Source: a virus
Reading direction: 5' to 3' (one strand)
Length of the DNA stretch: 37,474 nucleotides
Virus record (IMG/VR): IMGVR_UViG_3300017971_000152
Of the stretch, positions 3,390 through 32,100 are shown in pieces (the first letter of the stretch is position 1; the number at the start of each line of letters is the position of its first letter). Under the pieces are notes generated by a model. The model had not been told where the DNA came from and did not search any database. It was given only the letters and a program-made list of their open reading frames with translations. The position numbers and the translations under genes are program-made.

Positions 3390-3406
3390 CATACAGGTGC
3401 ATGTGC

Positions 3407-3436
3407 AACCAACCAACCAACCGGCCTCGTGGCCGG
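3407..3436 (+). other. (AACC)x4 microsatellite running into a 6-bp GC hairpin (ccggcc tcgt ggccgg) just upstream of the endolysin RBS
   Basis: Read directly. No T-run follows, so this is not a classic terminator. Confidence 0.4.
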
Positions 3437-3449
3437 CTGAGGTACTAAC

Positions 3450-3899
3450 ATGCAACTCAGGTTTGGTGAGCTCGACGACACACCGGCCAGGCGCCAAGAG
3501 TTGCGCCGGCAGTTTGACGAGTTACGCAGTCGCACACCACGGCTGACTCAAATGGTGTACGAGGCCGCCGGTTTTGTCCTTGACCAGTTTGGCTCAGCGG
3601 TGTGCGTCACGTCAGTGTACCGGCCTGACAACCCACGCTCAGTACATGCGTGGTGGCGTGGTGTGGACATTGGCCGCAACTCGACTGGGCTGACCCGCGC
3701 ACAAATGGGTGACCTGGCCTTGTACCTCAACCAACTGTGGGTGTATGCCACCGGCGGCAACCTGTGGGCATGTGTGTACGGTGAGCTCGACAAGTACCGC
3801 CGGCACTGGGACCACTGCCACTTGCAGTGCCACCCTGACACCCATTTGAGGCCACGGCCACTCAGCCTGGCCAGACTGCCGTGTGTGCCGGCTGTTTGA
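3450..3899 (+). CDS. Zinc peptidase M15-like endolysin (VanY or L-Ala-D-Glu peptidase type)
   Basis: SVHAWWRGVD is an H-x6-D motif, and WDHCH is a D-H-x-H motif. Together they form the M15 zinc-ligand pattern. SD is GAGG, 7 nt upstream. Confidence 0.65.
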   Translation: MQLRFGELDDTPARRQELRRQFDELRSRTPRLTQMVYEAAGFVLDQFGSAVCVTSVYRPDNPRSVHAWWRGVDIGRNSTGLTRAQMGDLALYLNQLWVYATGGNLWACVYGELDKYRRHWDHCHLQCHPDTHLRPRPLSLARLPCVPAV

Positions 3900-3983
3900 G
3901 GGGGTCACTGGCCACAGGCGCCAGGCGCCACCAGGCTCAAGAGAGGCCACCAGGTGAAACAGTGAGGGGCCACCTGAGAAAAT

Positions 3984-4003
3984 GCCTCTGAGAGCCTCTG
4001 AGA
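3984..4003. repeat. Tandem 10-bp direct repeat gcctctgaga x2, inside a cluster of GAGGCCA[CT] boxes (3943, 3964 variant, 4006, 4039)
   Basis: Read directly in the large non-coding region. Confidence 0.7.
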
Positions 4004-4154
4004 GAGAGGCCACAAACAGGCCGTTTTAGGCCGGTTGTGAGGCCATACAGCCACTCATGGCTCAAGGCAAGGGTGGCCGCTGTCCAAACTGGGCTCACGG
4101 TGCGCCTGGCATGGGCCACAGTGCGGTTTCACCACTACCGCCGGCGGCCACCAT

Positions 4155-4214
4155 AACTGACACCAACTGACACCAACTGACACCAACTGACACCAACTGA
4201 CACCAACTGACACC
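4155..4214. repeat. Six perfect tandem copies of the 10-bp unit AACTGACACC
   Basis: Read directly. Degenerate copies flank the array and the period is one helical turn. The region is non-coding and the array abuts the terminator at 4222. Confidence 0.95.
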
Positions 4215-4221
4215 ACCGCAA

Positions 4222-4264
4222 GGGGGTGGCCAATAATTGGCCACCCTCTTTTGTCTGTTTTTCC
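4222..4264 (+). terminator. Rho-independent terminator ending the late/lysis transcription unit
   Basis: The 10-bp GC-rich stem gggggtggcc/ggccaccctc has one G.U pair and a 7-nt loop aataatt. The tail ttttgtctgttttt follows. Confidence 0.7.
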
Positions 4265-4377
4265 TCTTGACACCTGAGCACCAGTGGGCCACCCTGTGCC
4301 ACATGGGGGTACCGGCTCAAGCTCACCTGGCCGGTTGACGACAACTGAGGCGAGAGCTCTTGACTGTGAGGGGGAAT

Positions 4378-4575
4378 ATGGGCAAGCCACTATACAAAGT
4401 CGTACGTGTGAAATGTCGCAACGAGGCACGCACAGAGTTGACCAGGTTGGCCGGCAAACTGCAAGGCCGCAAGGGCAACGACAAACCCAAACACACCGCT
4501 GACGTCATTGACGTGCTCTTGGGTCATGTACCCAAGTGTAAGTCATTGCGCAGTGCTCTTGGCATTGAGTCATAA
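4378..4575 (+). CDS. Small DNA-binding protein, possibly a ribbon-helix-helix regulator; first early gene
   Basis: ATG follows GAGGGGGAAT. PLYKVVRVKCRNEARTELTRLA looks like a beta-strand plus helix, and HTADVIDVLL like a second helix. Confidence 0.5.
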   Translation: MGKPLYKVVRVKCRNEARTELTRLAGKLQGRKGNDKPKHTADVIDVLLGHVPKCKSLRSALGIES

Positions 4576-4577
4576 GG

Positions 4578-4850
4578 ATGGCAACCATACTGGCGTTGTA
4601 TAACTCTGACGGTTGTGTTGGCCGTTGTGACGCTAAGTGCCACGAGGCAAAAGGTACTGAGTGCCGCTGTATATGTGGCGGCAAATACCACGGCAGAGGG
4701 GGGGCACGTCACTCTGAGTTGTTGACACTTGACCCGCGTGAGCTCGAGGGGGTGAAACAGCACGCTCACGAGGACGGGTTGCACCTGGTGGTGGCCGGCG
4801 TTTCTCTAGTGGACCTAAGAAAACGGCCACGGCAGTGTGAGTTGTTTTGA
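4578..4850 (+). CDS. Cys-rich putative zinc-binding protein
   Basis: GRCDAKCHEAKGTECRCICGGKYHGRG cysteine cluster. SD is AAGG. Confidence 0.6.
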   Translation: MATILALYNSDGCVGRCDAKCHEAKGTECRCICGGKYHGRGGARHSELLTLDPRELEGVKQHAHEDGLHLVVAGVSLVDLRKRPRQCELF

Positions 4851-4966
4851 CGTGGTGAGGGTGTGCCGTGCCGGCTGAGTAGTTAGTTGTGCGTCAGAAA
4901 CTACCCACTGGTACGCATGTTGTGAAAGCCGGCGGCACCCTCACCACACCTCAAGGGGGTTGCGAC

Positions 4967-5242
4967 ATGGCACATGTCTGTGACATTTGTGACAGCCAAG
5001 CGAAACACGTTGACGAGGTCAAGAGGTACCACGTGCTCTTGGTGCCTGAGGTTGAGGTGCTCAACCCTCAGCGCACACGGGCTGACCTCTTGCGGCACAG
5101 CGTCAGGGTTGTTGACCTCTGCCAAGGTGACACCACATGCCCGGCATTTGTCATCAATGGCATAGTCAAGGGGTTGACGCACGCCAAGGTCAGCGCATGT
5201 GGTGAGCGTGGTGCCGACAAGCCTGTTGGCTCAGTGAGGTGA
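4967..5242 (+). CDS. Small Cys-rich protein (zinc-ribbon-like)
   Basis: ATG follows AAGGGGGTTGCGAC. CDIC ... CQGDTTC motifs. The ORF-track GTG at 4889 lacks an RBS. Confidence 0.55.
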   Translation: MAHVCDICDSQAKHVDEVKRYHVLLVPEVEVLNPQRTRADLLRHSVRVVDLCQGDTTCPAFVINGIVKGLTHAKVSACGERGADKPVGSVR

Positions 5243-5518: not shown

Positions 5519-6439
5519 ATGGCTGAAAAAGACAAGGCGGCTGAGCCTGAGGTTGAGGTATTGCCGCCACGAGAGCCTGAAACTGAGGCCGCGTTTGTGC
5601 CTGACAAACTGTGGTCACCTGAGCACATGGCCGCGTTGGTGCGGCTTGACCCCGCCAAAACCGTGCAAATGATTGAGAAAATGGTTGAGCTCTTGCGTAT
5701 GCTCAAGCCGGCTCTCATAAAGGCCACGTACGCCGGTGACTGGGTTGGACACAAGGCCGCCGGCGGCAAAATGGTGTACCACCTCGAGGAAAAGGGTTGT
5801 CAGCGCATTGCGCCGTTGCTTGGCCTCGTCGTCATTGAGCCTCAGGTACAGCGCATAAACAACCCTGACGGCTCGTACACGTACGTGTACCGTGCCGGCG
5901 CATACTCACGCACACTGGGTGTGCAACTGCCACTCATAACTGGGGCACGCACCTCGAGTGACGAGTTTTTTGCCAACCAAAAGGGTGTGCTCGACGAGTG
6001 GGACGTGGCCAAGGCCGCGGAAACCAACTGGTACTCGAGAGCGGTGCCACGGTTGGCCGGCTTGCAAGGCATGACCATCGAGGACTTGAAAGCCGGCGGC
6101 CTCGACGGCGCCAAGGTGAGCAACATTGAGTACAAGGGCAAGAAACAAAAAGAGGCCGCACAGGCGCCACCACCCAACGGTGAGGCTGACACACGCACCA
6201 TTTCAGGACCACAGGCAAATAGGTTTTGGGCCATTGCATATGCCGCTGGCCGTGCCGTTGGTATGGCCAGTGAGGACGTGCAAGCGTGGGTACATGACTG
6301 GTTGCCCAGTCAGTTTCAGGTGGCCGGTGTTTCTGACATACCGCGCAGTATGTACGACGAGGCTGTTGACAAGCTCGTCGAGTTAGGGGGTGAGGACTTT
6401 GCCGCAGAGCAACGAGCCAAGTTTGCAGAGCGTGAGTGA
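5519..6439 (+). CDS. Putative single-strand annealing / recombination protein
   Basis: Lies immediately upstream of, and overlaps, a PD-(D/E)xK exonuclease, as in exo/bet-type modules. The C-terminal ISGPQANRFWAIAYAAG...IPRSMYDEAVDKL resembles the helical tail seen in phage annealing proteins. I did not recognise a diagnostic family motif. Confidence 0.45.
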   Translation: MAEKDKAAEPEVEVLPPREPETEAAFVPDKLWSPEHMAALVRLDPAKTVQMIEKMVELLRMLKPALIKATYAGDWVGHKAAGGKMVYHLEEKGCQRIAPLLGLVVIEPQVQRINNPDGSYTYVYRAGAYSRTLGVQLPLITGARTSSDEFFANQKGVLDEWDVAKAAETNWYSRAVPRLAGLQGMTIEDLKAGGLDGAKVSNIEYKGKKQKEAAQAPPPNGEADTRTISGPQANRFWAIAYAAGRAVGMASEDVQAWVHDWLPSQFQVAGVSDIPRSMYDEAVDKLVELGGEDFAAEQRAKFAERE

Positions 6440-7460
6440 GAGGCCAAGCCTGGCCGCGGCCATACTCGAGGCACGTGAGGCATATTGGCGCCGGTTGGCC
6501 CAAGAGGACGCCGGCAAGTGGCACAAGCGCAACCCAACACTGGGTACGCTTGACAAGTGTTTGCGTGCTGAGGTGCTCAGCATAACTCACTGGGATGCCA
6601 GGCCGCCGGTGTCACCTGACCTCAAGGCCAGGTTTGCCATTGGCAACGAGCGTGAGCGTGTCATTGGCCGGTTGCTCGAGGACATTGGTTTTGAGCTCGT
6701 CGAGGGTCAGAGGCCGTTTGAGCTCAATGGCCGTGACGGCACCCTCGTGGCCACTGGGCGCATTGACGGGCGCCTGAGGTGGCACGGCGCCAAGCCTGTG
6801 TATGAGTGCAAGAGTATGCACCCCAATTTCTTTGCACAGGTGCGGTGCCTCGAGGACTTGCACACGTGGCCGTGGACTGAGCGGTACCTGTGGCAAATAC
6901 AAGGGTACCTCTTGGCCGCTGATGAGAGTGAGGGGCTCATTGTCCTTGACAACCTCTTGGGTGGCCTCAAGGTGTTTGACGTCACTCTTGACCTCGAGGT
7001 GGCTGAGTGGGTGCTGAGCCACTGTGAAAAGGTTGTTGAGTACCTCAAGCGTGACGAGGTGCCGCCATTTCACTCTGACCCGTCACATTGCCGGCGTTGT
7101 GAGTGGCGTGGCCGGCAGTGCAACCCTGAGCTTGACCACGGACCTGGCATTGTCATGCTGAGTGACCCTGAGTTGGCCGCTGAGCTCGTCGAGCGTGAGA
7201 AACTCGACGAGGCACGCAAGAGGTATGACGAGCTCGACAAACACGCCAAGGCCGCTGTCAAGGCCACGTTGCCGGCCAGGTTTGAGGTTGGTGACATACA
7301 CCGTGTCATTGTTGGTGACTTTATGGCCACCGCCAAGGGCACTAAGTACACCTCGTATGACATACCGGCAGACGTCAAGGCCAAGTATGCAACGCCTGGC
7401 ATACAGGTGCGCACGTCGTTTGACAGGCTCATTGAGCCAACCTCTGAGAGTGAGGGGTAA
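6390..7460 (+). CDS. Cas4/RecB-like PD-(D/E)xK exonuclease with a C-terminal Cys cluster
   Basis: Motifs GRIDG, YECK (E-x-K), QIQGY (QxxxY) and HCRRCEWRGRQC. The start is uncertain: GTG 6390, TTG 6399 or GTG 6432. Confidence 0.7.
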   Translation: MRTLPQSNEPSLQSVSERPSLAAAILEAREAYWRRLAQEDAGKWHKRNPTLGTLDKCLRAEVLSITHWDARPPVSPDLKARFAIGNERERVIGRLLEDIGFELVEGQRPFELNGRDGTLVATGRIDGRLRWHGAKPVYECKSMHPNFFAQVRCLEDLHTWPWTERYLWQIQGYLLAADESEGLIVLDNLLGGLKVFDVTLDLEVAEWVLSHCEKVVEYLKRDEVPPFHSDPSHCRRCEWRGRQCNPELDHGPGIVMLSDPELAAELVEREKLDEARKRYDELDKHAKAAVKATLPARFEVGDIHRVIVGDFMATAKGTKYTSYDIPADVKAKYATPGIQVRTSFDRLIEPTSESEG

Positions 7461-7528
7461 GAGACACAACCAGGGTGGCCGTTTGAGGTGTGGTGCCGGA
7501 GAGGCCGCAACACATTTGTTTTTTCTCA

Positions 7529-7753
7529 ATGGCCGCACTGGCATTGCAAGAGGGTGGTGGTCAGGGTGCCACCATACCTCTGTGCGTTGGTGTTGGGTGT
7601 CCCGCGTGGGCCATGCGCCGTGACGGTGGCGGTGTTTGTGCGTTTGTGGCCGCGGCACATGCGCTCATTGGACTCAACCAGGCCGCACGTCAGGTGCCAA
7701 TGCCCATTGACCCCAACATACTCAAGGGGCCATTTGGGTTGGGCCAGTCATGA
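7529..7753 (+). CDS. Hypothetical protein
   Basis: This frame is chosen because its stop overlaps the next start (ATGA at 7750). The start could instead be 7490. Confidence 0.4.
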   Translation: MAALALQEGGGQGATIPLCVGVGCPAWAMRRDGGGVCAFVAAAHALIGLNQAARQVPMPIDPNILKGPFGLGQS

Positions 7754-8043
7754 CCAAGGCTGACGGTTGGGGTGAGAAACTGACGCGGTGCCGGCGTTGC
7801 AACGCTGAGGTCATACTGAGCACGTCACGCAAGGGCAACGTTATTGTGTTGGACCGTGCCACACGACAGTTGCATTTCAAAACGTGCAAGTACGCTGAGC
7901 AATTCAAGCGTGAGTACGCTGACCGTCAACTCAACCGCAAGTGGCAAGAGAAACACGAGAGAGAGCTTGAGAAACTCAGGCGGTGGAATAAGGCGGCAGA
8001 GGACACCAAGAGAGGGGGTTGCAATGGCCCAAGTACAGCGTGA
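7750..8043 (+). CDS. Small zinc-finger-like protein with a basic coiled-coil tail
   Basis: CRRC ... HFKTC motifs; ATGA coupling. Confidence 0.55.
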   Translation: MTKADGWGEKLTRCRRCNAEVILSTSRKGNVIVLDRATRQLHFKTCKYAEQFKREYADRQLNRKWQEKHERELEKLRRWNKAAEDTKRGGCNGPSTA

Positions 8044-8407
8044 GGACATACGCATTGAGGGTGGTGCTCTCGTCATTTCACCTCGAGAGAGCACGTTTGA
8101 CCCGATTGAGGCACTGTTACAGGTTGGCCTCAAACACTACCGTGAGCAAGAGGGACGCTCACCCAGTGACGTGTGCATTGAGGTACCGCGGGTGCTCTGT
8201 GGGCAACGTGTCAGGTACATACGGCCTGACGGACCTGAGGGTATTGGTGAGCTCATGACTGAGTTGGTGGCTCAGGTACTCAATGCCAACCAACAGTTGG
8301 GTGGCGGCATACCTGACAAACTGACGCCGTTTACGCTCACGTTTGAGCGTGTCACAGAGTTGGCCTTGGCTCTCAACCGTGAGCCCGAGGCCGCACGCTC
8401 GAGGTGA
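8024..8407 (+). CDS. Hypothetical protein
   Basis: ATG follows AGAGGGGGTTGCA, internal to ORF 7844..8407. Confidence 0.55.
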   Translation: MAQVQREDIRIEGGALVISPRESTFDPIEALLQVGLKHYREQEGRSPSDVCIEVPRVLCGQRVRYIRPDGPEGIGELMTELVAQVLNANQQLGGGIPDKLTPFTLTFERVTELALALNREPEAARSR

Positions 8408-10583: not shown

Positions 10584-10730
10584 ATGCCGGCTGACAGAGT
10601 GGTTGGTCAGAGCGCACGCAACATATGGCCTTGCACGCCAGGCGCCAACGGTCATTGCACCGTCAACACGCCGGCAAGGGCTGAGGTTGTCGTGCCCTGG
10701 CCACCCTCTGTGGCCGGCTTTTGCAAGTGA
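10584..10730 (+). CDS. Possible 48-aa ORF
   Basis: The codon style matches the native genome, but the RBS is weak. It ends at the hairpin ggccac-cctct-gtggcc plus a T-run (10699..10722). Confidence 0.25.
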   Translation: MPADRVVGQSARNIWPCTPGANGHCTVNTPARAEVVVPWPPSVAGFCK

Positions 10731-10738
10731 GGGTATCA

Positions 10739-11599
10739 ATGAAAATCTCGAAACTAAAGTCAATATTAGATGCTCATACTAGATGGCTGATGGGCGATAA
10801 TACAGGCACACGCGCGGACCTCAGCAACGCGGACCTCCGCAACGCGGACCTCCGCAACGCGGACCTCCGCAACGCGGTCCTCCGCAACGCGGACCTCCGC
10901 AACGCGGTCCTCAGCAACGCGGACCTCAGCAACGCGGACCTCAGCTACGCGGAGCTTAGCAACGCGGACCTCCGCTACGCGGTCCTCCGCAACGCGGTCC
11001 TCCGCAACGCGGACCTCAGCTACGCGGACCTCAGCAACGCGGTCCTCAGCAACGCGGACCTCAGCTACGCGGACCTCAGCAACGCGGACCTCAGCAACGC
11101 GGACCTCAGCAACGCGGACCTCAGCAACGCGGACCTCAGCAACGCGGACCTCTGCAACGCGGTCCTCCGCAACGCGGACCTCAGCTACGCGGACCTCCGC
11201 AACGCGAAAGATTTACTGAAACCTATGGGAGTTGAACAGGGCAACTGTTACTGGAAACGCTTGAACGCGGGGCTCTGCAACAACGGCTACCAGTACCATG
11301 TCGGACACAACCGGCTGCGTGATGGCGAGATATTCGCTGCCGACGAACGGGTCTTGTGTTCATATCCAGGCTTTCATTTCGGCTCGCGGTCGTGGTGTGC
11401 GGTCAACTTTCCAGAGAGGCCGCTTGAGGCGCGGGTGCGGATACCTGACGGGGCGCAGATAAACGAGCCCTGGGCGACTGACGGTAAGGCGAGCGCGGAC
11501 ATGATTGAGATATTACAGGTTTTCGAGGTTGCGACTGGCAAGGACATGACAGACACATATAGGAGCACGGACCATGAGAAAACAGAGCCAAATGCCTGA
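10739..11599 (+). CDS. Pentapeptide-repeat protein: about 27 [NY]A[DV]L[SR] repeats plus a roughly 130-aa Cys-containing C-terminal domain
   Basis: The N-terminus KSILDAHTRWLMGDNTGTRADLSNADL is typical of pentapeptide-repeat proteins, followed by the repeats. SD is GAGGG. Word and codon usage is clearly foreign to the rest of the genome. Confidence 0.9.
   Translation: MKISKLKSILDAHTRWLMGDNTGTRADLSNADLRNADLRNADLRNAVLRNADLRNAVLSNADLSNADLSYAELSNADLRYAVLRNAVLRNADLSYADLSNAVLSNADLSYADLSNADLSNADLSNADLSNADLSNADLCNAVLRNADLSYADLRNAKDLLKPMGVEQGNCYWKRLNAGLCNNGYQYHVGHNRLRDGEIFAADERVLCSYPGFHFGSRSWCAVNFPERPLEARVRIPDGAQINEPWATDGKASADMIEILQVFEVATGKDMTDTYRSTDHEKTEPNA
10811..11215. repeat. About 27 tandem 15-bp DNA repeats (aacgcggacctcagc and close variants) encoding the pentapeptide repeats
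   Basis: Read directly. Synonymous positions are nearly invariant between units. Confidence 0.95.
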
Positions 11600-12265: not shown

Positions 12266-12668
12266 CGACACACATGAGGTACCCACGCCACCCTGGTTGT
12301 GGGCACCTCTCAATGCTGACGAGGGTGACAAGGGGTACTGTGACTTTGAGGTCACACCACCGGGCCGGCGTGAGTTGCCACGGCAGTGTGGCCACTTGGG
12401 CACTCATGAGCTCTGTGGGCACTGGTTTTGTGGCCACCACCACAGGCGCATTTGGGACCGGCACAACGAGTGGGTCACGGCGCACATTGAGGCTGAGCGT
12501 GAGGCTTTCAACGACTGGGACGCTTTCACGCCGGTATCTCTTGACGAGCAATACCACCCTGACCCTCAGTACGAGCTCAAGGGGTTGCTCTTTGACGACT
12601 ATGAGGACGACTTGACTGACCAGGACGACTTACCTGAGGGTATTGACCTGGTGAGGTGGTGGCCATGA
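12255..12668 (+). CDS. Cys/His-rich hypothetical protein with an acidic tail
   Basis: ATG follows AAGAGGG. The motif is CGHLGTHELCGHWFCGHHH. Internal to ORF 11889..12668. Confidence 0.55.
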   Translation: MPADDTHEVPTPPWLWAPLNADEGDKGYCDFEVTPPGRRELPRQCGHLGTHELCGHWFCGHHHRRIWDRHNEWVTAHIEAEREAFNDWDAFTPVSLDEQYHPDPQYELKGLLFDDYEDDLTDQDDLPEGIDLVRWWP

Positions 12669-12967: not shown

Positions 12968-13358
12968 CATTATGTCACGAGAGAGCTCACCTGAGAGGCT
13001 TGTCATACGTGACTTGGGACCGTGGACCGTACACTTTACGGTGACCAACGACGCTGAGGGTGTGGTTGAGCGCCTGGTTGCCGCCGGTGAGTTGCCGCCA
13101 GGCCGGCGCCTATTCTGTTATGACTCAGACGGCGCTCTTGACGAGCTCGAGGTGGTCAACGGCCAGTTTGCGGGTTTCAGGCCAGGACCGTACCGCAAGG
13201 CTCACCAAGGACCGCTCGAGCCTGACCAACTCGAGGTCAACAACGCTCTTGACCCGTACGAGTTTACTGAGAGCCCACAAGGGCACCGCGCACGAGAGCG
13301 TTGGGCACGCCGGTATGACGAGCTCAACGGTGCGCCTGAGGGTGACTGGGACCGTTGA
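12945..13358 (+). CDS. Hypothetical protein
   Basis: ATG follows AAGGGGGTTGCAC, internal to ORF 12804..13358. Confidence 0.55.
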   Translation: MGQPARFDIMSRESSPERLVIRDLGPWTVHFTVTNDAEGVVERLVAAGELPPGRRLFCYDSDGALDELEVVNGQFAGFRPGPYRKAHQGPLEPDQLEVNNALDPYEFTESPQGHRARERWARRYDELNGAPEGDWDR

Positions 13359-13378
13359 CGACAGAGGGGGGTGAGAAA

Positions 13379-14383
13379 TTGTCGCACCGCACGTGGCACA
13401 AGGTTTTTGCTGACCAGGTACTCAGAGGGGCACTGAGAGGCCGTGAGCCTGAGGGACGTGACCCCACACCCAAAGAGCGTATGTTTATGGCCTTGACGCC
13501 ACTGAAATGTGCGGCCATGAGAGGCATTTGGGGTGACATATTGTGCCTCGTGACTGACGGTGCGTACAGTGACGACGGGCTCATACAACCGGCACGAGGT
13601 GTTGGGTACACTGATTTACAACTGCGAACAACCCTCAATTTGACACCATATTTGTGGGCTGAGGCCAAGGCTCTTTTTGCCAAGGCCGGCATGATACAGG
13701 TCAGAGCTAACAACGTCATAAGTGTGCCAAACTACAGAAAATACAACAGTGAGTACCGCCGGCAAAAGAGGTACCGTGAGGCTCAAAAGTTACAACCTGA
13801 CGTTACAACCGGCGGGTGTAACTCTGATTCGTCACCTGACGTTACAACCCAAGGTGACAACCAAGAGTTACTCACAGAGGGAGAGAGAGAGGGAGAGAGA
13901 GAGAGAGACTACGTAAAAAAAAGCGCACCGCCGGCTCAGGGTGCCTCTGACCAACCCTCACCTCAGTTGGGGTCATGTGACTCAGAGGAAACCACAGAGG
14001 CCGCGGTGCGCAGTCTCTCAACACTTTCAAAAACTGACCGTGACGAGCTCACAACACTAGCAAGGCCGTTTGAGCCTTGCGCACCCAGTTTCAGGGTGTA
14101 CTCGTGGCTCACCAACATACTCAAACTCAGCCAAGAGCGCAAGGTACCTCTCGACGTGGCCGTTGAGGCTCTCAAACGTACCCTGACCTCTGTGACACCC
14201 AAACTCACCAAGGTGCCTGACACCCGCAACCTGTATGCTGTTTGCACGAGAGAGTTTAGACACCAGGCCAACCTCGTACAGCATGAACACAACAAGCGTG
14301 ACGAGCATGAGTTTACACGCTCAGGCAAGGGCCGGCTCTTGCTCGAGGCATTTAGTCTTGAGGCCAAACCCATGCCTGAGTGA
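13379..14383 (+). CDS. Replisome-organizer-like protein (similar to Phage_rep_org_N) with an internal repeat / low-complexity linker
   Basis: WHKVFADQVL...ALTPLKCAAMRGIWGDILCLV...GYTDLQL...AKALFAKAGMIQV..NNVISVPNYRKYN follows the replisome-organizer N-terminal pattern. TTG 13379 follows GAGGGGGGTGAGAAA; an alternative TTG is at 13355. Confidence 0.55.
   Translation: MSHRTWHKVFADQVLRGALRGREPEGRDPTPKERMFMALTPLKCAAMRGIWGDILCLVTDGAYSDDGLIQPARGVGYTDLQLRTTLNLTPYLWAEAKALFAKAGMIQVRANNVISVPNYRKYNSEYRRQKRYREAQKLQPDVTTGGCNSDSSPDVTTQGDNQELLTEGEREGERERDYVKKSAPPAQGASDQPSPQLGSCDSEETTEAAVRSLSTLSKTDRDELTTLARPFEPCAPSFRVYSWLTNILKLSQERKVPLDVAVEALKRTLTSVTPKLTKVPDTRNLYAVCTREFRHQANLVQHEHNKRDEHEFTRSGKGRLLLEAFSLEAKPMPE
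13789..13850. repeat. Iteron-like direct repeats inside the organizer gene: GTTACAACC x3 (13789, 13802, 13841) and ACCTGACGTTACAACC x2 (13795, 13834)
   Basis: Read directly. Confidence 0.8.
13876..13922. repeat. 33-nt all-purine (GA)n tract followed by an A8 run
   Basis: agagggagagagagagggagagagagagagaga is followed by ctacgt and then aaaaaaaa. It encodes EGEREGERERDYVKK. Confidence 0.9.
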
Positions 14384-14405
14384 ACACTGCAAACCGTTGT
14401 CAAAA

Positions 14406-14493
14406 AACAGCCGGCTCACTGGTGCGTCAACTCTCACGAGTATTGACGACAGCGCAACCCCGCGCAACCCCGCACCTGGTGAGGCCGGCTGTT
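14406..14493. repeat. Long-range inverted repeat (aacagccggctcac / gtgaggccggctgtt) enclosing the tandem repeat gcgcaacccc x2.5 (14452..14476)
   Basis: Read directly in the intergenic region upstream of terS. A-tracts flank it at 14402..14407 and 14503..14509. Confidence 0.7.
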
Positions 14494-14533
14494 TCTCGTT
14501 GGAAAAAAACCTGTTGACACTGGCACGACGTTT

Positions 14534-29169: not shown

Positions 29170-32100
29170 GGACACTGACACAGGCTTTTCAGGACATACG
29201 CAACAAGAAACAAGGGTATGACCTCTTACGCCGGCTCTTGCTGTTGCCTCAGTACCAGGCGCCGGTGGCCAGTATTGTGACCGGCGGCAAGAGTGTGTAC
29301 GTTGACGGTCAAATGGCACCCATGTTTCCAAGCCAGGTGGCCGGCGCCGTTGGCTACGGTGACATGGTGTACGTGTCGAGCAAGAGGTATGACGGCCTGT
29401 TGCCATTGGTCAACTGTGGTGTCATTTCAAACGGGCGCACAGCCGTCAATTTTGACGTGCCTGACGACACTTTCACTGACGACGACATTGGTGCATACCT
29501 GGCGCCGGCATGGGACGTCACACACCTCATTGCAGACGGCGGCTTGAGCGTGCCTGACCTCAAGCTCGAGGGTGAGTCACTCAACAAGTTTGACTCAGGC
29601 CAAATGTCAGTGGTGCTCAATGACCCTAACAAGTGGCTGTACGACTCTGACAGCGAAAGTGGCCCACTATACATGCGTGGTGTCATGGGCACCGCCACCT
29701 CAAACCCAGTGGCCGTGGGCTCGTATTGTGCCAAAATAACTGACACCAACGCCAGTTTCACAGTTGACGGCCTGTTTCCTGGTGAGCTTGTCATGCTCAG
29801 TGGCGCGGCTCGAGGCAAACGCTACCACGTATATGACAACGACGCTGACGACATATACGTTAGGGGCCGGCTCGACACTGACGGCGTGGTTGCCGGTGAC
29901 CGTTTCATTGTCAACAGGTCACGTGTGGTGTACTTTCAGCTACACCTTGGCATTGAGGGTGCCACTGACCAGGTCATGGTCATGGGTGGCCTCATTGCAC
30001 CCAAGGCCATACAGTACAACGCACGAGAGCACACCCTGAGCATGACTGGGTATGGCATGTTGCGTGACCTCGAGCGTACACCGGCATACCTTGTGTCACA
30101 ACAAGGTGGCCTGTTGCCCAAAATGCGTGCGCTCAAGCCTCTCAGGTACGTCGAGCCACCCGCCGGCGCACCAGTATATGGGCCACGGCCTCTCAGGTAC
30201 CGTTTCGAGTCTGCCAAACTCACCGGCATTGACCTCAAGAGCATTGAGAGCGAAACGCACGACGGCGTGTACCGTTTGCAGTTTCGCCGGCCAACCTCGT
30301 GGCGTTGGGCAATGGGCGCGTGGACAATACCAAGTGGCGCGGGTGACAGTTTTGAGGACACACTACCGGCACACGCTGACGTTGGTGGTGGTGACCTCAC
30401 GGCTGAGTTTCAACCAGGCTCATACCCATTGGCTGACGACGAGGACATTGCCATTGTGACGACGAGGGGCACTCAGTACATTGTCAAGTGGCGTGAGCGT
30501 GTTTATGAGTACCCACGCGGTTGGCGGCCATACAAGTATGAGCGTGACACCTTGCGCACGCGCCGTGTTGTTGTTGAAATGGCCGGTGACCCTCTCAGGC
30601 CGTACGACGCCACGCACATTGGCCACCCAGTGGTCACGTTTGACAACGGACCTGACCTCGAGCTCAGGCCGGTGTTTGACGTGGTGTACTGGTACAAGGG
30701 CGGTTGGACTGACCGCACGGTTGAGGCTGAAACCCGCGGTGGCACGTCATTTTCTATTGCTGACGACACAACTGACTACCTGTACTTGGGCGCCAGGCGG
30801 CCATTTGGTGGTGCGTACTTTGTGCTCGACGACAGCACGGGTTGGACTGGTGCAGGCAACATGACCATGCAATACTGGGACGGCACCGCCTGGCAGACAC
30901 TCACTTTCACTGACCTCACTGACGACTTTGACCAGGACGGCCTCATATACTGGGACATACCACTTGACTGGGCTCTCAAGGGTGAGCTCGACGGCTCGAG
31001 CTCTACACCACGGTACTACTATGTACGCATAGGCCGCACCATAAACAACGTCAACACCGCCAAGGCCAGGCAAATACTCAGGTACCAAGAGGCCACCGGC
31101 GCCAAGGCTGACAAACTGGGGTTTGTAACAGAGTTTGAGTACCTCACCATTGGTGACCTGAGTGACGACGTGGTCATTGTGGCTGATGCCAACGGTGACC
31201 CTGTGCCGGCCACATGGTACACCACCACGAGGCTGTATGACGTTGTCACCCGCGCACTCGACGCGGCCTTTTACGGCTCAACAAAACGAGAGTTGGCTGA
31301 CTGTGTGCTCACCTCGAGCGCCAAGTTTGTTGCGCCTTGGGGGCGCATACCGTACATGACGAGCAACCTCAAGGTCACCGCCAGTTGTTTTGACAAGGTG
31401 CGTGGTGAGTTTGTGGTTGGCCTTGAAAACGAGTTGTGGCTGTTGCCTCGAGAGGGTGAGCCTCAACTAATATGGCGGTTGCCGCCACGGTACGAGGTGG
31501 CCGGCCTGGCATACTCAGAGGGTGACGACAGCGTTTCAGGCATGGCCATACGGCGCGAGAAACCCACTGAGTCACGTGACCCCGCTGAGTACCCTGAGGG
31601 TCAGTACAGTCTCATGTTTGAGCTCACCAGTGACAACACGGCAGTGCTGTACTGGGGGTATGTCACTTTTGCCTTACATGAAATTGTTGACACGCGGTAC
31701 ATATACCGCACCGGCTGTGTGGTTGGGGCCAACCTGGTTGTGGGCCAGTTGACGGGCTCAAGTGAGAGTGAAAACGTCATTGTGCCGTTTCCTCAACTCG
31801 TCATACATGCTGACACCTTGGCTCAGTATGTCCAATTTGACCATGACGTAAACAGCCTCTTTGACGAGGTGGCAACCGGCGGTGACGGGCGGTTGCCTGA
31901 GTGGCTCGTGCCAGGCTTTTACGTCGTGTCAGCGTACAACACCGCGGCCACCAGGCTTGGCCTGAGAGTCAACTGGGGCACCCGCAAGGCGTTTGGTGTG
32001 GACTACCTCAACGCCGGCATGTTTCTTGAAAGCCGGCCACTGACGTTGCCCAACTGCAATGCACTGTACTTTTTCAGTGCGTCGTCAGGTGGTGTGACTG

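Follow-up and report, generated by a model that had tools for sequence, protein, structure and literature searches.

A perfect decamer array before the terminator-like hairpin at the late/early junction of a circularly assembled phage genome: a possible recent minisatellite

The phased arrays of short direct repeats known from phages and plasmids, such as the Cox boxes of P2, the Apl sites of 186, the Xis sites of lambda, ParR-parC of R1 and pSK41 and the omega heptads of pSM19035, are degenerate and come with two partners, a small winged helix-turn-helix (wHTH) or ribbon-helix-helix (RHH) protein and either an integrase or a partition NTPase. Among replication origins, lambda ori lies in O, SPP1 oriL and oriR are bound by G38P and set the precedent for a second, distant binding region, and several lactococcal phages have origins in repeat-dense non-coding hubs. 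The late/early junction is the usual terminus in phage genomes with fixed ends and one direction of transcription, and the terminal repeats of T7-like phages are flanked by short repeat arrays. At the RNA level, a Rho utilization (rut) site comprises 60-80 nt of single-stranded RNA, with a footprint of 57 +/- 2 nt, six clefts for pyrimidine-cytosine (YC) dimers and linkers of 9-13 nt, and the triplets AAC, ACA and CAC rank among the descriptors by which Rho-dependent terminators are best told apart (PMC6144790). Finally, perfect and fast-changing intergenic tandem repeats are documented in mobile elements such as the Borgs (PMC9879509). The present analysis concerns a viral DNA stretch of 37,474 nt (IMG/VR record IMGVR_UViG_3300017971_000152; the whole stretch is referred to as the window), in which the ten-base unit AACTGACACC is repeated at least six times in perfect tandem at 4155..4214 on the + strand, in the gap that separates the last late gene from the first early gene.

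The first and the last 123 bases of the window are identical, which indicates a closed circular assembly and a genome of ~37,351 bp (37.35 kb). The + strand carries all credible genes, and the genome is transcribed in one direction. The late and early genes meet at a non-coding junction of 478 bp (3900..4377), and both the position of this gap at the boundary and its lack of a credible open reading frame (ORF), as proposed in the initial annotation, were borne out: no gene is called there on two independent public contigs (L001 and L002), and none of the mechanically listed ORFs of either strand matches a Pfam family. The gap contains no tRNA gene; Rfam 15 gave zero matches at the gathering score for the whole window and only chance-level matches (E >= 0.6) at 3800-4450. 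A hidden gene or a known RNA in the gap was ruled out by these Pfam, Rfam and tRNA searches. Tandem Repeats Finder (TRF) describes the array with a period of 10, 6.1 copies and 100% matches at 4155-4215 (score 122), in agreement with the six perfect 10-bp repeats noted previously. Six perfect tandem decamers are not attainable by chance. The array has TGA in all three forward frames, lies 256 nt past the last stop codon and stands 5 bases upstream of a strong hairpin with a T-run (4220..4264, + strand). The hairpin stem (4220-4250) comprises 14 pairs, 8 of them G-C, closed by the three-base loop AAT and followed by TTTTGTCTGTTTTT, which agrees with the terminator of the initial annotation. It is the only strong terminator-like site genome-wide; the other candidates have stems of 5-9 bp and occur at the rate seen in shuffled sequences. 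Judged from the sequence, its predicted stem, loop and T-run are those of an intrinsic (Rho-independent) terminator, and it sits downstream of the last late gene.

The terminator and the gene order argue for a role of the junction as a transcription boundary. The reading that we favour, to which we would give somewhat less than an even chance, is a late/early transcription boundary that carries a recent, slippage-made minisatellite with at most a modulatory effect. Late transcripts would continue for ~320 nt beyond the last stop codon, crossing a structured, G-rich segment, and end at the sole strong intrinsic terminator, and early transcription would restart somewhere in the 110 bp after it. 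The AACTGACACC array would be a young tandem repeat, generated by replication slippage or unequal recombination in the untranslated tail before the terminator. It would be built of words common in the genome, still perfect, and unstable or at least not resolved in length. Such an array would not represent an old, conserved set of iterons or operators, and any effect would be incidental or modulatory. Possible effects may include spacing, the provision of a stop codon in every frame, or an unpaired C-rich tract that frees the terminator stem or aids the loading of a factor.

Several properties of the array point to slippage. The six units are perfect, with no decay at any position, and the unit is made of high-frequency genomic words: TGACACC, CTGACA and TTGACA are common in the genome and are accounted for by their sub-words in a maximal-order Markov model, and AACTGACACC with at most one mismatch occurs 20 times (4.6 expected), with 14 of these occurrences outside the array, scattered in coding DNA. 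Near-identical copies of the phage are present in several public assemblies, and over 12.4 kb the array is the only difference between them. The window and the independent assemblies are 100.000% identical over this length apart from the unit count, which is 3 in a MEGAHIT contig from ENA (L001) and 6 in both a JGI contig (L002) and the window, and the Logan k=31 contigs start or stop within the array because of the k-mer size. Every k-mer of the 3-unit contig is also found in a 6-unit genome as long as k<=32, and every k-mer of the 6-unit contig in any longer array as long as k<=62; 3 and 6 could therefore each be the minimal de Bruijn solution, and the array may have more than six units. The slippage reading further draws on the lack of a candidate binding protein among the phage proteins scanned (with Pfam and PHROGs, the central head and tail genes at ~22-33 kb not being among them), on the abundance of ten-base TGACACC arrays in public data (at least 120 matches per collection) and on three distant relatives that keep the gene order without the array. 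Perfect head-to-tail copies and absence from synteny-keeping relatives (here at 30-37% identity), as expected of a slippage-type tandem repeat, were thus both found.

These relatives were reached via the exonuclease encoded in the early region, the best non-self matches having 30-42% identity. The genomes L004, L005 and L006 share the order late/lysis genes, junction, small gene, ~305-aa protein and Cas4-like exonuclease, and their junctions contain no tandem array and no boxes, the relatives being at 30-37% identity in the anchor protein. The initial annotation held that a regulatory or origin role would be weakened if relatives lacked the repeats and boxes while keeping the gene order; such a role is indeed weakened, only mildly so given protein identities of 30-37%. 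Sigma-70-type promoters are found at the junctions of L005 (10/12) and L006 (11/12), and the L004 junction has a TTGACA box, recognized by eye, that falls below the threshold of the promoter scan. In L006, a tyrosine integrase gene and a tRNA-Val gene (7115-8393) sit exactly at the late/early junction, again with no array. Because of their position, the late/early junction in temperate relatives is an integration module. The ~305-aa protein and the Cas4/RecE-like exonuclease form the only early module common to the window and all three relatives, and are probably a recombination pair of annealing protein and exonuclease. No DNA match to a phage was obtained in 50,697 phage records (near and distant modes). 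In comparisons with cultured phages, the large terminase shows 23-29% identity at most and the capsid protein has no match, and none of three flanking proteins has a relative in IMG/VR, where the exact array is likewise missing. By these comparisons, the uncultured phage has no close relatives.

The perfect, fast-changing repeats of Borgs (PMC9879509) are a further argument for slippage. The array resembles them in its perfect head-to-tail copies, a unit length not divisible by three, a location between genes at the end of one of them, a unit apparently derived from local sequence, absence from relatives and a copy number that may vary in the population. In contrast to Borg genomes, which carry many such repeats each, the 37-kb phage has one array, and its unit is C/A-rich rather than strongly A-rich. 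The flanking partial repeats are weak, and the variation in copy number comes from assembled contigs, not reads. Other observations weigh against a slippage-made array of little consequence. Phage genomes are compact, yet the array is placed precisely, with 5 nt between it and the terminator. Exactly 60 bp further on lies a seventh TGACACC box, which together with a degenerate unit at 4336 hints at a dispersed family of sites rather than a lone slippage product. The array is an extreme C>G, G-poor and unpaired stretch, which would fit a selected RNA property, and TGACACC arrays elsewhere sit on promoters. The difference in unit count resembles a copy-number polymorphism but is not safe evidence, as it may be an assembly artefact, and the only relatives at hand are too distant for a conservation test. 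What the sequences show is the anatomy, the terminator, the lack of coding, the missing array in the syntenic relatives and the discrepancy in unit count; that the array arose by slippage, is young and plays no sequence-specific role is our inference.

When public metagenome and genome collections were scanned for three TGACACC boxes spaced 10 bp apart, each collection gave at least 120 matches. Among the matches listed, most are unrelated minisatellites and three contexts are informative; one match (L114) is a 22-unit minisatellite of a AACTGACACC-type unit in eukaryote-like DNA. In Patescibacteria (L149, L168, L171, L197, L129 and L207), three TGACACC boxes lie over the -35 region, 5-8 bp before TATAAT. 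The gene downstream encodes a conserved protein of 81-83 aa with an excisionase-type helix-turn-helix (HTH) recognized by eye (M.EIKPNEVYTT.EA.ELLKVSNSTMKRLL...), and the boxes look like a conserved autoregulatory operator array. In a 44%-GC phage (L255, 8380-8446; also L256 and L257), TGACACCGRA is repeated seven times, and L028 has 4 units. The stop codon of a sigma-70-region-4-like gene (156 aa) marks the start of the L255 array, which stops 8 bp before TTGACA-N17-TATTCT; a hairpin follows this promoter. The third context comprises at least 4 copies of a ~90-bp intergenic element in one Gemmatales metagenome-assembled genome (JBBROG01; L150, L153, L158 and L192), in which an 11-bp palindrome, GGGGGTGTCAC...GTGACACCCCC, precedes 4-5 TGACACC boxes at 10-bp spacing; this element may be the end of a mobile element, a regulator array or an RNA. 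Because of the promoter contexts, phased TGACACC rows can be protein sites.

The array could be bound cooperatively as DNA by a phage or host protein of the HTH, sigma-region-4-like or RHH type. Its phased TGACACC boxes, which are -35-like and lie ~50-110 bp upstream of the TTGACACC box, would then serve as an operator, a roadblock or a titration sink for the late-to-early boundary or for an early promoter. We consider this possible and rather unlikely. In its favour, direct repeats follow one another every 10 bp; a seventh box, TTGACACC, lies in register 60 bp downstream and the degenerate unit at 4336 lies beside the first early gene; the gap has the densest oriented GGCCAC boxes of the genome; and the rows found elsewhere cover the -35/-10 region of the 81-aa protein gene in Patescibacteria and, in the unrelated phage (L255-L257, L028), lie between the sigma-70-region-4-like gene and the TTGACA-N17-TATTCT promoter downstream of it. 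As in the Cox, Apl, Xis, ParR-parC and omega arrays, there are at least six direct repeats with a period of about one helical turn, at a developmental or transcriptional switch region and beside a small early gene. The units of the array are perfect and contiguous without a spacer, whereas the known operator and iteron sets are degenerate, and none of their partner proteins (wHTH/RHH, integrase, partition NTPase) was found among the window proteins scanned, which gave no match to HTH_17, Cox, integrase, sigma-like or RHH families. The early proteins likewise carry no HTH, RHH or sigma signatures. When the sigma-4-like protein of L255 and the Patescibacteria HTH proteins were compared with the window by tblastn, nothing significant was obtained, and neither has a homologue there; a weak tblastn match at 12483-12608 was considered as a sigma-like or HTH binder and set aside, with no confirmation from Pfam or PDB. 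The initial annotation placed all six sites on one face of the helix; the 10-bp period holds, but at 10.5 bp per turn the sites drift by ~17 degrees per unit and their alignment is only rough. The predicted curvature of the array (wedge model) falls at the 98th percentile, a value that is uninformative because the permuted-unit controls span 5-121 degrees and the array does not differ from them. Furthermore, TTGACACC lacks a -10 element, which leaves a promoter unproven, and as the other TGACACC arrays came out of a search for just this pattern, their existence is expected and only their promoter context is independent. A broader proposal, which we regard as improbable, is that phased TGACACC rows constitute a recurrent, so far undescribed regulatory device, namely dosage-tunable pads or sinks for sigma-region-4/HTH-type proteins that occur independently in the window phage at the late/early boundary, in the low-GC phage after a sigma-4-like late regulator gene (4 or 7 copies) and, in Patescibacteria, at the promoters of the conserved excisionase-like HTH gene. 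If so, the row would set the supply of regulator or sigma factor to the TTGACACC box, and the copy number would tune early/late timing. The array could also function as RNA, as a platform that loads Rho, with its six subunits, or another oligomeric RNA-binding factor. It would then back up the intrinsic terminator and, on DNA that is circular or concatemeric, shield the early genes against read-through of late transcripts. On the + strand the array RNA is unpaired in both the minimum free energy (MFE) and centroid folds, provides the strongest C>G window of 78 nt (0.308, ~4 standard deviations over the mean) and the most G-poor 60 nt, and would be ribosome-free because it lies beyond the last stop codon and has TGA in all frames. 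Its length of 60 nt, with a CC dimer every 10 nt in sixfold repetition, is near the published rut requirements, and it shares with rut sites ~60 nt of unpaired, untranslated RNA with C >> G, regular YC dimers, richness in AAC, ACA and CAC and a location at the operon end (PMC6144790). Natural rut sites, in contrast, are not perfect repeats and need none; the YC linker of the array is 8 nt, below the published 9-13 nt and close to a biophysical estimate of 9 +/- 0.4; and a strong intrinsic terminator 5 nt downstream leaves Rho little to do. Any tandem repetition of a single C-rich decamer would bring these RNA properties with it, so that they do not count as independent evidence, and the host may lack Rho. 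This RNA-based function is, in our judgement, distinctly improbable.

It is very unlikely that the array is a replication element, either the primary origin or, as with oriR of SPP1, a second and distant region for binding of the organiser. A weak match to replisome-organiser/DnaD-like proteins is encoded at 13355-14383, CTGAC and CAAC are common to the array unit and the GTTACAACC-TGAC iterons (8/10 bases in one register, by eye), an inverted array 13-mer with one mismatch occurs at 13963-13975 beside a candidate origin, and the repeat-dense non-coding setting recalls that of the lactococcal phage origins. Multiple direct repeats and an encoded organiser-like protein are also shared with lambda ori and SPP1 oriL/oriR. 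Unlike these, the array has no AT-rich unwinding region. The GC content is 0.60 in the gap and also at 3501-4500, which is among the highest of the genome, and the only AT-rich stretch is the 17-nt T-run of the terminator, so that the origin suggested for this site by the initial annotation gains no support. The units are contiguous 10-bp repeats that differ in period and sequence from the GTTACAACC iterons, which are clustered inside the initiator gene, the usual place of the origin in organiser-type phages, and CTGAC is a generic word in this genome. Nor does the array lie in or next to an initiator gene: the organiser-like gene is 9 kb away and has its own, different repeat cluster. This cluster (13789-13920) contains GTTACAACC at 13789, 13802 and 13841, GTGACAACC at 13854, an inverted GTTACAACC copy at 13814, a 20-nt inverted repeat (13818/13852) and an (AG)n tract at 13876-13908 followed by an A8 run, and lies in the window of lowest GC content in the genome (0.536) with a local dip in GC skew. 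It has the classical layout of a candidate origin inside an initiator gene and appears a better candidate than the array, which makes the 4155 array an unlikely primary origin. Cumulative GC skew rises monotonically, with local dips only at 3.5-4.5, 10.5-11.5 and 13.5-15 kb; because of this monotonic rise and the co-orientation of the genes, GC skew cannot locate the origin. The partition-like site raised previously would call for a partner, and no ParA/ParM-like or RHH protein was detected among the proteins scanned; the array of short direct repeats alone is present. There is only a slender chance that the gap holds a packaging or terminus element, such as a cos site, short direct terminal repeats of the T7 type, an injection signal or a terminase/end-processing site. 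The late/early junction would be the expected place for it in a fixed-end, one-directional genome, the gap is dense in direct and inverted repeats, and the small terminase has an HTH. The terminase genes, however, lie at a distance of 10 kb, and the gap upstream of them contains repeats of its own (GCGCAACCCC x2 and a perfect inverted repeat of 11 bp); the distant relatives encode Terminase_2 small subunits, a family that includes the SPP1-type headful (pac) packaging terminases. The three assemblies are circular permutations with arbitrary breakpoints (the 123-bp overlap of the window, window position 29642 for the JGI contig and a 15-bp coding repeat for the ENA contig), and these breakpoints give no hint of termini at the array; only the k=31 Logan contigs break there, for k-mer reasons.

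All elements that the initial annotation listed in the gap are present. On the + strand, CAGGCGC is repeated 2.3 times at 3915..3930 (TRF), and two copies of AGAGAGGCCAC (3940 and 4003) lie on either side of a GCCTCTGAGA duplication in the segment 3940..4013, which was delineated from repeat families and folding. TRF counts 2.1 copies of GCCTCTGAGA at 3984-4004, and GCCTCT and AGAGGC pair up as a small hairpin within the segment in the predicted fold. The box GAGGCCAC is found at 3943 and 4006, with the variants GAGGGGCCAC at 3964 and GAGGCCAT at 4039. GGCCAC occurs 10 times in the 478 bp of the gap (8 forward, 2 reverse) vs ~1.6 expected. Outside the gap, its counts of 53 and 69 match maximal-order Markov expectations of 54 and 76, which identifies it as a common word genome-wide and rules it out as a special motif of the whole genome. 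The peak density of GGCCAC/GTGGCC in the genome is at 3650-4300 (11 per 450 bp vs a mean of 1.6; 10 forward, 2 reverse). This cluster covers the 3' end of the last late gene as well, and some of its copies form a predicted structure at 3980-4156.

The latter segment (3980..4156, + strand) is G-rich, consists mostly of GGCCAC/GTGGCC words and has strong predicted secondary structure. Its + strand folds with an MFE of -84.2 kcal/mol (z = -3.87), and 0/200 shuffled sequences are as stable. The minus strand folds as well (z = -2.92), and the structure signal is therefore attributed to DNA-symmetric inverted repeats. The initial annotation considered the array itself as a structured or processed RNA; instead, the array is predicted to be fully unpaired and the structure sits upstream of it. 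The + strand RNA of the array is incapable of a self-folded hairpin. Transcription of the minus strand at 4140-4262, if it occurs, would give array RNA, (GGUGUCAGUU)n, that could pair with itself as a long hairpin rich in G-U (MFE -42.4 kcal/mol, z = -2.2).

Downstream of the terminator, a pattern search located the seventh TGACACC box, the -35-like TTGACACC, at 4267..4274 on the + strand. It lies exactly 60 bp beyond the last array box (4208 to 4268). Both this sequence and the TTGACAC at 14514, to which the initial annotation had drawn attention, were recovered. TGACGACAACTGA at 4336..4348 (+ strand; repeat and pattern search) is a degenerate 1.3-unit copy that matches the array in 11/13 bases. 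No -10 partner was found for any TTGAC box in the gap, and 0 sigma-70-type promoters were found in 3400-5000; in a scan of the whole genome, their count is no higher than in shuffled sequences. A second repeat-bearing gap, at 14384-14533, lies directly upstream of the small terminase gene and may be a late promoter or pac region. It contains GCGCAACCCC x2.2 (14452-14473), the TTGACAC at 14514 and a perfect 11-nt inverted repeat, AAACAGCCGGC/GCCGGCTGTTT (14405/14484).

The genes on either side of the junction are orphans. The last late gene (3450..3899, + strand) encodes 149 aa with a possible M15-type peptidase motif, TSvYR...SvHawwRGVD...HcH. This protein has no Pfam or PHROG match and no PDB relative, and a search of 5.8 billion proteins returned no homologue beyond itself. 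Its alignment with a Peptidase_M15_3 protein of the relative L005 is at the motif level and non-significant. The label endolysin attached to it previously is thus unsupported by homology, the M15-like motif having been judged by eye. The first early gene (4378..4575, + strand) encodes 65 aa from an ATG with GAGGGGG 4 nt upstream; gene callers start it at TTG 4360, which gives 71 aa. Its product, earlier described as RHH-like, is an orphan in searches of 5.8 and 1.84 billion sequences, and the single-sequence AlphaFold2 model, of low confidence (predicted local distance difference test, pLDDT, of 67.7), comprises two long helices and a short third helix without a strand. A chitin-binding repeat protein, the sole match in the search of 1.84 billion representatives, was judged spurious and rejected as a relative.

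From the junction, the gene order on the + strand begins with small early genes (from 4378), followed by a ~306-aa protein and the Cas4/RecE-like exonuclease (5519-7460), a pentapeptide-repeat protein gene (10721-11599) and the weak replisome-organiser/DnaD-like match (13355-14383). The HTH-bearing small terminase and then the large terminase come after the organiser-like gene. A probable portal, a Mu-F-like head protein, an SU10-type capsid protein and tail genes follow the terminases, and a short series of small late genes closes the circle, the last one stopping at 3899. Within the pentapeptide-repeat gene, the 15-bp unit CGCGGACCTCAGCAA is repeated 26 times (91% matches) at 10813-11206. 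The ENA contig is broken inside this coding repeat, and window positions 10957-11083 are absent from it. Palindromic hexamers are very abundant for a phage, with 176 copies of GCCGGC, 102 of CTCGAG and 86 of GAGCTC in 37 kb. This abundance is the reverse of restriction-site avoidance and may stem from a bias in codons or dinucleotides, from DNA modification or from a host signal.

For the biology of this phage, the analysis shifts the likely origin of replication to the organiser-like gene, and leaves the endolysin and RHH labels of the flanking genes without homology support. If the array is a young minisatellite, its value is practical: it breaks or collapses short-read assemblies, and it could be a strain marker for the phage. 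If instead it is a platform for a protein or an RNA factor, it would be an unusually clean natural case of six identical sites, possibly variable in number, set against a terminator, and would offer a simple system for how the number of sites tunes a transcription boundary.

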